A stretch of DNA of 64,000 nucleotides from Escherichia coli. Its GTDB lineage: Bacteria > Pseudomonadota > Gammaproteobacteria > Enterobacterales > Enterobacteriaceae. Below the pieces are notes generated by a model. That model was not told the origin of the DNA, ran no database searches, and saw nothing but the letters and a program-made list of their open reading frames with translations. Below, in pieces: positions 32,911 to 51,360 of the stretch. The stretch is taken from the NCBI RefSeq assembly GCF_013315695.1, contig NZ_CP054353.1; one strand, written 5' to 3'. A program made the position numbers and the translations under genes. Within the stretch, counting starts at the first letter, position 1. Every line of letters starts with the position of its first letter.

Positions 32911-33234
32911 TTAGAGAAAGACAGGGAAGGCGGAATGATGGCACTGATATGACAAAGTGAATTCCGTATTCAAACATAAGGAACCCGCAAAGAGGCTACA
33001 GTTGCCTACTGGCTGACCAAAGGGGATAGCGTGGGTATAGCCTGCCTGCTGGCATGCGCGATCGGCGATCCCGCGACTGACATAACGATCGGTACTGGCA
33101 TGCTGCAAAAAAGCCTGATCATAAACCAACCGAACAATACCTGTTGCCGCGTCAACTTCGCTCACATGGGCCTGGCGAGTAACCGTACATCCTGTCAGCG
33201 TTATTAAGGAAAGAGTCAGAATCAGAAGTCTCAT
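32911..33234 (-). CDS. yecR: Lipoprotein YecR
   Basis: 107 aa with lipobox LTGC. Confidence 0.8.
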   Translation of the reverse strand: MRLLILTLSLITLTGCTVTRQAHVSEVDAATGIVRLVYDQAFLQHASTDRYVSRGIADRACQQAGYTHAIPFGQPVGNCSLFAGSLCLNTEFTLSYQCHHSAFPVFL

Positions 33235-33497
33235 GGTCCAGCCAGAAGAGTAAAAGAAAGCAGTATTTTACGCGTTACAGCGCTGCGACAATGGCCGGAA
33301 AAGACGCCTGGCAGGCGCTATTTCTTGCCATCTGTATGTGTTAGAAATTGGGGGGGCTGCTTTTTGATTATCATTTTTATAACATTAAAGGGGTATTTAT
33401 GTGATTTACATCACATAAAGATTGATTTTTGTGATGGTTGTCATATTATAAACGTAAAGACAATAACACCTGTATAACAAATGGTCGGAGTACCGCG

Positions 33498-33584
33498 ATG
33501 AAACTGCGCAAGATCCTGAAAAGTATGTTCAATAACTATTGCAAGACGTTCAAAGACGTACCGCCAGGCAATATGTTCCGATAA
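33498..33584 (+). CDS. azuC: Small protein AzuC (28 aa) on dual-function RNA
   Basis: atgaaactgcgcaagatcctgaaaagtatgttcaataactattgcaagacgttcaaagacgtaccgccaggcaatatgttccgataa; below the ORF-track size cutoff. Confidence 0.7.
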   Translation: MKLRKILKSMFNNYCKTFKDVPPGNMFR

Positions 33585-33585
33585 C

Positions 33586-33612
33586 AAAAAACCTGCTCCG
33601 GCAGGTTTTTTT
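33586..33612 (+). terminator. Rho-independent terminator after azuC
   Basis: aaaaaacctgc tccg gcaggtttttt. Confidence 0.6.
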
Positions 33613-33698
33613 GTGTTCTGATGACGGTGGATGTGACTATCGCTGAAGATGTGAAGCCGCTACTATAACGGCTTTCAAAATGCTATCAGGAGTTTACG

Positions 33699-33950
33699 AT
33701 GTCCCAGCCGCTGAATGCCGATCAGGAACTGGTTTCTGATGTGGTTGCTTGCCAGTTGGTTATCAAACAAATTCTGGATGTTCTCGATGTGATCGCGCCC
33801 GTTGAAGTTCGCGAAAAAATGTCCAGCCAGCTGAAGAATATCGACTTTACTAACCATCCCGCCGCCGCAGACCCGGTCACCATGCGGGCAATCCAAAAAG
33901 CCATCGCGTTGATTGAACTCAAGTTTACCCCACAGGGCGAATCCCATTAA
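33699..33950 (+). CDS. yecJ: YecJ (DUF2766)
   Basis: 83-aa ORF. Confidence 0.8.
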
Positions 33951-43819: not shown

Positions 43820-45245
43820 TAATGCCAGTCAGTTAAGCAACTGACTGGCTCTTTTTCGGGGCTGTGGGGTATTTCCAGGGCCTCTCCTTTACCACTCTCG
43901 GGAAGGCCCTTTCCCTTCTTGTCGGTAATTTCACAAGTTGTCCCATACTTGCAAGATCGCGCATCAGCTCCGGTATACGTCCCGGTGAAGCGCCCTGCAA
44001 TGTCATCAGCATTCTCATCACCATTCCGCATGATTCTGAGAAACTCAGTTGATTCGGCCAGTAACCTTTCAGATGTTCCGCCATTTTAATCATCTGATAT
44101 CTCACCAGATTATAAGCCAGTAAGACACCCCACAGCTCTTGCTCCACAAGCTCCGGTTTTTTACTTCTCAGCGTCAGCCTGCTCAGTTGCATCGTCTGTT
44201 TTATCTCCCTGTATCCCAGTTCGATTTCCCAGCGATGACTGTACAGATCCGCCATTTCTCCTCCGGGGAAGCGCATGGCGTCCGTCATCGACGTCAGCAG
44301 ATGGCAGACTTTTCCTTTGCGCGTCACGGTCAGCAGGCGGGCTGTCACTTCATTTCCCAGTCCCGGCCACTTTTTTCGTGCCTGCGGGCTGGTTTTCAGC
44401 TTCACCAGATGATCGCCTTTACCCAGTTTTCTGATCTCTTCATATTGCGCTCCCTTTCTGAGAGGTATCATCCAGTGGCGGTGTTCTCCCGCCAGGCTCC
44501 AGGCATTTAACAGTCCCAGTGAGTAATAACCTTTATCCATTAACGTCAGAGTGTTATCGCCGGTTTGTTCTATAAGTTGCTCAGCAAGCTCATTTTCGCT
44601 GTTCTTCATCGTGCCGAAGGCTGCAGCCGTCAGCAGATGGCTGGTCAGTTCCATCTGGCAGACCATTTTGACCTGCGGGTAGAGCGCCGGGTTCCCGGCA
44701 TGTGTCTGGCGGGGGAAGGCTGCATCGTTCTCTGGTGTATCCGGTGTGCGCCAGAACACACCATCGATGGCCAGCAGGGTCAGGCCGCACCAGTGCGGAT
44801 GCGGCGTGGCGTTATGCCAGAGCTGCGCTGTTTTCGTGAACACGCGGCGGACAGCCTCACTTCCCAGGCGCTGGCGGGCCTGAATAACGGCACTGGGGGC
44901 AACGAAGGGGCGATTGCCCGGCAGCATGATGTCCAGGCGATTCACAATCTGGTGAAGAGGTTCTTTACGCTCAAGCGCCATGCCAACAATACACCAGACC
45001 ATCATTTCGAGGGGAAGACGGCGCTTGCGTAGCGTTACAGTACCTGATTCGGCAAGGCAACGAGAGATGAGTTCGGGGTCGAGGTAATCCCCCAGAGAAG
45101 TCAGTGGGTTACGCAGAGAATCGTAACGGGATACCAGATCAAGAGCCTGTCCAATGTGCATAAAAAAATCCGGAAACAAGTGAGCGTTTCCGGATTCTTA
45201 CACAGCCACTGGATCGGTCAACTGATCCTTAACTGATCGGCATTA
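43820..45245 (-). mobile_element. IS4 insertion sequence (1426 bp) with 12-bp target-site duplication
   Basis: Imperfect terminal IRs taatgccagtcagttaag / taatgccgatcagttaag; flanked by direct repeats cggcagatgggg at 43808-43819 and 45246-45257. Confidence 0.9.
43833..45161 (-). CDS. insG: IS4 transposase (DDE, InsG)
   Basis: 442 aa from [28 protein letters not shown]. Confidence 0.9.
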
Positions 45246-51133: not shown

Positions 51134-51360
51134 ATGTTTAATCGTATTCGAATTTCGACCACGCTGTTTTTAATTTTGATTCTCTGCGGGATCTTGCAGA
51201 TTGGCAGTAACGGCATGTCTTTTGGGCATTTCGCGACGATTTGCAACGACTGAATCAGGCCGACCATCTTTCGTCGCGTGTGGCGGTATTTACCCTTGAA
51301 GAACATGAAGTAGCACGACATGAGTCGGCGCAGTTACAAATTGCGCCAGTGGTATCCTGA
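51134..51360 (+). pseudogene. tap: tap (MCP IV, dipeptide receptor) remnant: N-terminal 30 codons, frameshift, and C-terminal ~30 codons joined by an internal deletion
   Basis: Begins MFNRIRISTTLFLILILCGILQIGSNGMSF then shifts frame; the 3' end encodes ...RVAVFTLEEHEVARHESAQLQIAPVVS* in another frame; expected gene is about 1.6 kb but only 227 bp is present. Confidence 0.75.

Follow-up and report, generated by a model that had tools for sequence, protein, structure and literature searches.

Does a short open reading frame followed at once by a strong intrinsic terminator represent a functional gene, or is it one of the many frames that arise by chance? This question was posed by the interval between yecR and yecJ in the window, the 64,000-nt stretch of Escherichia coli DNA that was analysed here. 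An initial annotation, made from the sequence alone, had proposed that this interval contains a 28-codon frame that matches the small membrane protein of the AzuCR dual-function RNA. In order to examine this proposal, the identity of the frame, the elements that surround it and its conservation were analysed.

Identity and surroundings of the 28-codon frame

Reading and translation of the sequence placed the frame on the plus strand (33498..33584, 28 codons plus TAA), with an ATG at 33498-33500 and a TAA at 33582-33584, and returned the peptide MKLRKILKSMFNNYCKTFKDVPPGNMFR exactly as it had been described. The frame was indeed flanked by yecR (32911-33234, minus strand) and yecJ (33699-33950, plus strand). 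All 28 residues were identical to those of the AzuC protein of strain K-12 (b4663), and alignment to K-12 azuC, a check suggested by the initial annotation, detected a single codon change, which was synonymous. Comparison of MKLRKILKSMFNNYCKTFKDVPPGNMFR with the NCBIfam equivalog model NF033642 (stress_AzuC) gave a score of 75.9 bits, the cutoff being 30 (E = 1.3e-21), with AzuC residues 2-27 covering the entire 26-position profile. Pfam contained no family for this 28-aa protein. The order of the genes around the frame (glyW-cysT-leuZ, yecA, tyrP, yecH, ftnA, yecR, azuC, yecJ, ftnB, araF and araG) was the same as in K-12, for which RefSeq lists both azuC (CDS, b4663) and azuR (ncRNA, b4434, 1987843..1988001) at this position. 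The match to AzuC was thus upheld by the residues, the family model and the gene order. A 'stress response protein AzuC' (WP_010723106.1) was also found annotated at this locus in E. coli strains Trh52 and MSB1_4I; the 401 nt around azuC were 100% identical between Trh52 and the window, and MSB1_4I was near-identical to the window across the stretches that aligned.

The frame had been reported as missed by the list of open reading frames. It was absent from this list at the default minimum of 60 aa, but this absence was a mechanical artefact of the length threshold. At a minimum of 20 aa, the azuC frame appeared as a 48-aa ORF starting from a TTG at 33438; this TTG precedes the start of transcription at 33456 and hence cannot serve as the azuC start codon. 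As 59 ORFs of at least 20 aa overlapped the 3.5 kb around azuC, a length of 28 codons is unremarkable by itself. What raises this locus above the chance background is the identity that it shares with a characterised gene rather than the length of its ORF. Overall, these results indicated, with a probability that we put at about 0.97, that the feature is an intact E. coli azuC/azuR gene and that its transcript is the AzuCR (IsrB/IS092) dual-function RNA. This gene is already known, its product having been proposed as an sRNA in 2002, reported as a small protein in 2008 and characterised as a dual-function RNA in 2022 (PMC8915982); it has been characterised experimentally and annotated by RefSeq, and nothing in the analysis contradicted the identification.

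The description of AzuC as a small membrane protein was correct with respect to membrane association but not if an integral membrane protein was meant, as both computation of the hydrophobic moment and the published work (PMC8915982) pointed to a peripheral, amphipathic protein. Residues 2-19 had a helical hydrophobic moment of 0.60, a value reached by 0.7% of shuffles. The computed net charge was +6 and the longest apolar run consisted of 2 residues, with no transmembrane segment. These computed features fit the published peripheral amphipathic helix at the inner membrane (PMC8915982) rather than a transmembrane protein. In K-12, both AzuC-SPA and untagged AzuC have been detected, the protein is located at the inner membrane, binding of ribosomes to azuC has been published, and GlpD co-purifies with AzuC, which raises GlpD dehydrogenase activity (PMC8915982). 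Given the identity of the two proteins and these published experiments, membrane association and the binding and activation of GlpD would be expected of AzuC in the window strain.

A further statement of the initial annotation was that azuC is conserved despite surrounding rearrangements. These rearrangements are real, but the nearest is 8.6 kb away and none touches azuC, so that conservation in spite of them is unremarkable. A blastn comparison of the whole window with K-12 (1.95-2.03 Mb) detected one collinear block of 97.5% identity at 19097-42185, which reaches 14 kb upstream and 8.6 kb downstream of azuC.

Several rearrangements were observed beyond this block. An IS1 element (9747-10521) stands in place of about 13 kb comprising yedL, yedN, intG and the genes fliE to fliR. 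It connects the rcsA side (K-12 ~2023592) directly to yedK (K-12 ~2010505), with flanks at 6077-9754 and 10701-18146. Of 5426 complete E. coli genomes, only 2 had this junction, and the annotation of MSB1_4I includes a fliR remnant of 90 nt. The motA gene is interrupted at about codon 91 by an insertion of 1426 bp (43820-45245) with a 12-bp target duplication, which is absent from MSB1_4I and carries, on the minus strand, a 448-aa ORF (counted from the first TTG) that we take to be an IS4 transposase. The motA insertion and the fli deletion predict a non-motile strain. At the start of the window, a P2-like prophage tail module (1-6076) truncates dgcQ and contains baseplate, tail fibre and tail-fibre assembly genes followed by a 'recombinase family protein'. 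Its segment 3755-5362 is inverted relative to MSB1_4I and looks like a Cin/Gin-type invertible tail-fibre switch in the other orientation, and internal repeats of ~92% identity are present at 2665-3585. At tap (51252-51266), ~1.36 kb is missing in comparison to K-12, and MSB1_4I has only a frameshifted 'Tar ligand binding domain' remnant. The genes yecT and yecV are missing, the interval that contains them (~770 bp in K-12) being replaced by ~40 bp at 58180-58220, and flhB is annotated with an internal stop in MSB1_4I. The centre of fliC (18147-19096) had no match to K-12 fliC, as expected for the hypervariable H-antigen domain; in MSB1_4I, the annotation of fliC reads 'FliC/FljB family flagellin'. 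Over the aligning stretches, the window and MSB1_4I (NZ_LR898874.1) were 99.6-100% identical, the exceptions being the motA insertion, the inversion within the prophage and a small gap at about 16.6 kb.

Promoter, transcript and terminator of azuC

A promoter scan of the plus strand detected a -35 hexamer, TTGATT (33422..33427), separated by 16 nt from a -10 hexamer, TATTAT (33444..33449), with 9 of 12 matches. Alignment to K-12, using the published +1 (1988001) and length of 164 nt (PMC8915982), mapped the AzuCR (AzuR/IsrB/IS092) transcript to 33456..33619 on the plus strand. The +1 equivalent at 33456 is the seventh base after the -10 hexamer, with 6 nt between them. As the RefSeq azuR feature of K-12 equates to 33456-33614 of the window, the length from the +1 equivalent is 159-164 nt. 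The ends of the transcript in the window strain are those predicted by this homology.

Two CRP-type sites were present in this promoter. Site I (TGTGA-TTTACA-TCACA, 33400..33415) lies upstream of the -35 hexamer, and its position relative to the -35 and -10 hexamers suggested that it corresponds to the 'predicted CRP binding sites' of the published map (Fig. 1A, PMC8915982). Site II (TGTGA-TGGTTG-TCATA, 33430..33445) overlaps the -10 hexamer, an arrangement that would fit repression by CRP; such repression of azuC has been reported (PMC8915982, citing Hemm et al. 2010). Within the leader, a CACCTGT motif 25-31 nt upstream of the ATG (33467..33473, plus strand) occupies the position of the published pairing site for FnrS (PMC8915982), which represses azuC translation together with Hfq (PMC8915982). 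This motif was unchanged in K-12 and could form 6 Watson-Crick pairs and 1 G-U pair with the 5' end of FnrS (GCAGGUG, from the K-12 fnrS annotation). A Shine-Dalgarno sequence, GGAG (33487..33490, plus strand), is located 7 nt before the ATG.

Comparison of the 164-nt RNA with that of K-12 detected 161 identical positions and 3 differences, none of which affected the protein. These were a G-to-A change at +37 (33492), between the Shine-Dalgarno sequence and the AUG, an A-to-G change at +57 (33512), which alters the codon of Lys5 synonymously from AAA to AAG, and a C-to-U change at +162 (33617) in the 3' tail; no differences were present from +58 to +161. In the promoter, two bases differed within the CRP site I spacer and another two immediately before +1. 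From this comparison, azuC of the window strain would be expected to show no functional difference from that of K-12.

The strong intrinsic terminator that had been noted after the ORF was recovered by a terminator scan and by folding as an 11-pair stem, AAAAAACCTGC / TCCG / GCAGGTTTTTT + T (33586..33612, plus strand). Positions 33586-33596 pair with 33601-33611 around the TCCG loop, the T-run extends to 33612 (the seventh T), and the azuC stop codon is 1 nt from the stem. When folded alone (33580-33619), this element had an energy of -18.4 kcal/mol (z = -6.2), a value that was equalled in no case among 200 shuffles. The global fold of the 159-nt RNA was no more stable than those of shuffles (z = -1.2), and hence we make no claim of internal structure beyond the terminator. 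A search of Rfam identified no family at its gathering score and no match to an AzuCR/IsrB model, so that Rfam cannot be used to judge membership; the sub-threshold matches, to STnc370 (31.9 and 29.0 bits, gathering score 54), rsmX and istR, were driven by the terminator.

Conservation across species and alternative readings

A lack of conservation in closely related genomes had been named as evidence that would count against the azuC assignment. Using megablast with 401 nt (33300-33700), the region was detected in 5419 of 5426 complete E. coli genomes. RefSeq annotated azuC in 19 of 20 records sampled down the ranking, the twentieth being a 55-nt partial match without the feature.

More distant loci were sought with a degenerate DNA pattern of ~46 bits covering codons 1-24 and specifying residue classes only. 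This pattern had a single match in the window and none in shuffles, and ~0.01 chance matches were expected in the species-representative genomes that were scanned. The scan detected 65 further loci in about 25 named genera and several MAGs. These genera included Escherichia, Citrobacter, the Klebsiella oxytoca group, several Enterobacter isolates, Kosakonia, Leclercia, Phytobacter, Cedecea, Buttiauxella, Siccibacter, Franconibacter, Mangrovibacter and others and, more distantly, Sodalis, Acerihabitans and Dickeya. The ORF had 27 or 28 codons in all 65 loci, the position of the stop lying outside the pattern. A KDVPPG motif was invariant, the pattern itself requiring PPG and limiting K, D and V to residue classes. 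Y14, which was weakly restricted by the pattern, was a tyrosine in 65 of 65 loci, and at pattern-free positions C15 was present in 59 loci, T17 in 64 and M26 in 64. Variation was of a coding type, being found mostly at third codon positions, with a mean pS of 0.54, a mean pN of 0.09 and a pN/pS of 0.17, although pN, and with it the ratio, is biased downward because the pattern constrains the residue class at 18 of 24 codons.

The conservation of individual elements was examined by aligning positions -110 to +50 of 60 Enterobacteriaceae sequences and calculating mean column identities. The flanks had identities of 0.42-0.56. Values of 0.90 and 0.93 were obtained for the half-sites of CRP site I (spacer, 0.60), 0.96 for the -35 hexamer, 0.99 and 1.00 for the half-sites of CRP site II (spacer, 0.72), 0.99 for the -10 hexamer, 0.93 for the FnrS site, 0.97 for GGAG, 0.91 for the azuC CDS and 0.94 for the terminator. 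The regulatory half-sites were kept in 59 aligned Enterobacteriaceae loci; in the six distant loci, which were inspected by eye, the two CRP-type sites were kept except in Dickeya, which had one. The FnrS site was assessed within the Enterobacteriaceae and read CACCTGC, which is fully Watson-Crick paired, in 42 of 60 sequences, while the E. coli version (window and K-12), CACCTGT, pairs via a G-U at 33473.

The terminator hairpin was 99.1% paired across 60 species. No covariation was detected among these 60 Enterobacteriaceae because the sequence of the stem was nearly invariant. In Sodalis, Acerihabitans and MAGs, the terminator contained GCTGC/GCAGC, a compensatory flip from C-G to G-C, and the terminator of Dickeya differed. 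The near invariance of AAAAAACCTGC...GCAGGTTTTTT across the 60 species, despite synonymous divergence (pS of about 0.54), is a constraint that exceeds the needs of pairing alone. Binding of ProQ or Hfq to the 3' hairpin, or bidirectional use of the terminator, may account for this additional constraint.

The genes adjoining azuC were also compared. The distance from yecR to azuC was ~300 nt in Escherichia and 1.2-5 kb elsewhere, many genera (loci L005, L008, L010, L013, L018, L019, L024 and others) having 2-5 kb of extra DNA in this interval. The yecJ gene (DUF2766) adjoined azuC widely, and other neighbours varied.

The proximity of yecJ raised the alternative that azuC is mainly a leader or upstream ORF of this gene, with the terminator acting as an attenuator and azuC translation modulating read-through. 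Among the 59 loci with enough DNA, 43 had yecJ on the same strand and no more than 300 nt from the azuC stop. The minimum gap between azuC and yecJ over all loci, terminator included, was 65 nt, and in two loci (L011 and L014) the short gap leaves no room for a separate yecJ promoter. The distance of 1 nt between stop codon and stem suggested, moreover, that the 5' arm of the hairpin would be covered by a ribosome that terminates at azuC; several species, however, have a further 11-14 nt at this point (19-21 nt in all). Most species also have a TACTAT hexamer ~30 nt upstream of the yecJ ATG (33661-33666 in the window), which is consistent with a promoter of its own, and the discrete ~164-nt RNA of K-12, with its trans-acting protein and RNA functions (PMC8915982), argues against a mere leader. 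We therefore consider a role primarily as a yecJ leader to be improbable. This alternative is compatible with the azuC/AzuCR identification rather than exclusive of it, and co-transcription of azuC and yecJ or a coupling through read-through is possible.

A second alternative was that the transcript is solely a non-coding sRNA (IsrB/IS092) and that the 28-codon ORF is fortuitous and untranslated. The transcript entered the literature as a candidate sRNA (PMC8915982), and short ORFs are as frequent by chance as the count of 59 in 3.5 kb indicated. An untranslated ORF is at odds, however, with the length of 27-28 codons kept in 65 of 65 loci from other species, with the third-position variation (pN/pS of 0.17), with the conservation of residues that the pattern left free and with the conserved Shine-Dalgarno sequence 7 nt upstream of the ATG. 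The substitution pattern was frame-dependent, the opposite of what this alternative predicts, and it is contradicted by the published detection of tagged and untagged AzuC and of ribosome binding (PMC8915982). It was accordingly rejected as highly improbable. A chance ORF beside the terminator of a neighbouring gene has a still smaller, near-negligible probability: the hairpin is symmetric, with an A-run before and a T-run after it and weak Rfam matches to STnc370 on both strands, and could terminate transcription on either strand, but the nearest upstream gene, yecR, is on the other strand, so that no plus-strand gene ends there, the closest upstream gene on the minus strand, ftnB, ends 416 nt away, promoter, ORF and terminator are conserved as a block across genera, and the identity to K-12 azuC/azuR together with the cross-species conservation contradicts this explanation.

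Pairing, control and relation to other dual-function RNAs

With the identification as azuC/AzuCR preferred, the published functions of the K-12 RNA were considered for the window strain. In K-12, AzuCR acts as a repressor of cadA, where it pairs close to the RBS, and of galE, where it pairs within the ORF; both pairings have been shown by compensatory mutations. The part of the RNA that pairs belongs to the azuC ORF, and each of the two processes, translation and pairing, hinders the other (PMC8915982). The cadA and galE genes of the window strain are located beyond the window. The base-pairing action of AzuCR needs the chaperone ProQ and not Hfq (PMC12612679), and the RNA's stability seems to depend on ProQ (PMC8915982).

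A windowed duplex calculation predicted a cadA-pairing region at 33536..33569 (plus strand), inside the azuC CDS. The best duplex joined AzuCR +81..+114 to K-12 cadA -16..+19, a stretch comprising the RBS and start codon, with an energy of -24.2 kcal/mol, a value that was not significant in comparison to shuffles (-20.2 ± 3.3) and is illustrative only. The predicted stretch was 100% identical to K-12 and agreed with the published account on proximity to the RBS and on location within the ORF (PMC8915982). Whole-length RNAduplex calculations with cadA and galE returned meaningless full-length duplexes. A putative duplex with galE, the best one predicted, involved AzuCR +37..+62 and would include the A-to-G change at +57; this synonymous change might conceivably touch the galE pairing stretch. 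A comparison by eye of third-position identities among the aligned loci detected no clear excess of synonymous-site conservation at the predicted cadA-pairing codons, a result that is compatible with a later acquisition, in certain lineages, of AzuR pairing with cadA and galE.

The identity of the locus to that of K-12, taken together with the published experiments, suggested the following mode of expression and action in the window strain. A sigma-70 promoter (-35 at 33422, -10 at 33444), overlapped by the two CRP-type sites, would drive synthesis of an RNA of ~164 nt (33456-33619). As an mRNA, this transcript would be translated from the ATG at 33498 to produce the 28-residue, highly basic and amphipathic AzuC protein. 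As AzuR, a stretch inside the ORF would base-pair with the cadA and galE mRNAs and cause their repression, and the two activities, translation of AzuC and pairing of AzuR, would compete. Transcription would be repressed by cAMP-CRP when no glucose is present, and under anaerobiosis FnrS would pair 25-31 nt upstream of the ATG and repress translation.

The closest relative of this system is K-12 AzuC/AzuCR itself, which has the same protein, promoter, CRP-type sites, FnrS site, Shine-Dalgarno sequence, terminator and position between yecR and yecJ. E. coli SgrS/SgrT resembles AzuCR in combining base pairing and a small protein in one small transcript linked to carbon metabolism (PMC8915982). 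SgrS differs, however, in that coding and pairing are assigned to distinct regions, both directed at one target pathway (PtsG), whereas AzuCR pairs through a region within its ORF and its two activities compete; the two RNAs have no sequence relationship. Spot 42/SpfP of E. coli and VcdRP of Vibrio cholerae are, like AzuCR, CRP-repressed dual-function RNAs, but their sequences, targets and partners are unrelated to those of AzuCR, the partner being CRP for SpfP and citrate synthase for VcdP.

Two readings of the comparative data go beyond published accounts. One is that AzuC and its control by CRP and FnrS are ancestral and that pairing with cadA and galE was added later in particular lineages; the other is that azuC translation modulates read-through into yecJ. 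Taken jointly, these readings are speculative and we regard them as doubtful. The recovery of azuC also carries a methodological lesson, in that a floor of 60 aa for ORFs overlooks functional small proteins, while a reader of the sequence alone recovered this gene correctly. For the biology of these RNAs, the data from the 65 loci on the CRP half-sites, the FnrS site and the linkage to yecJ could guide work on the evolution of dual-function RNAs.
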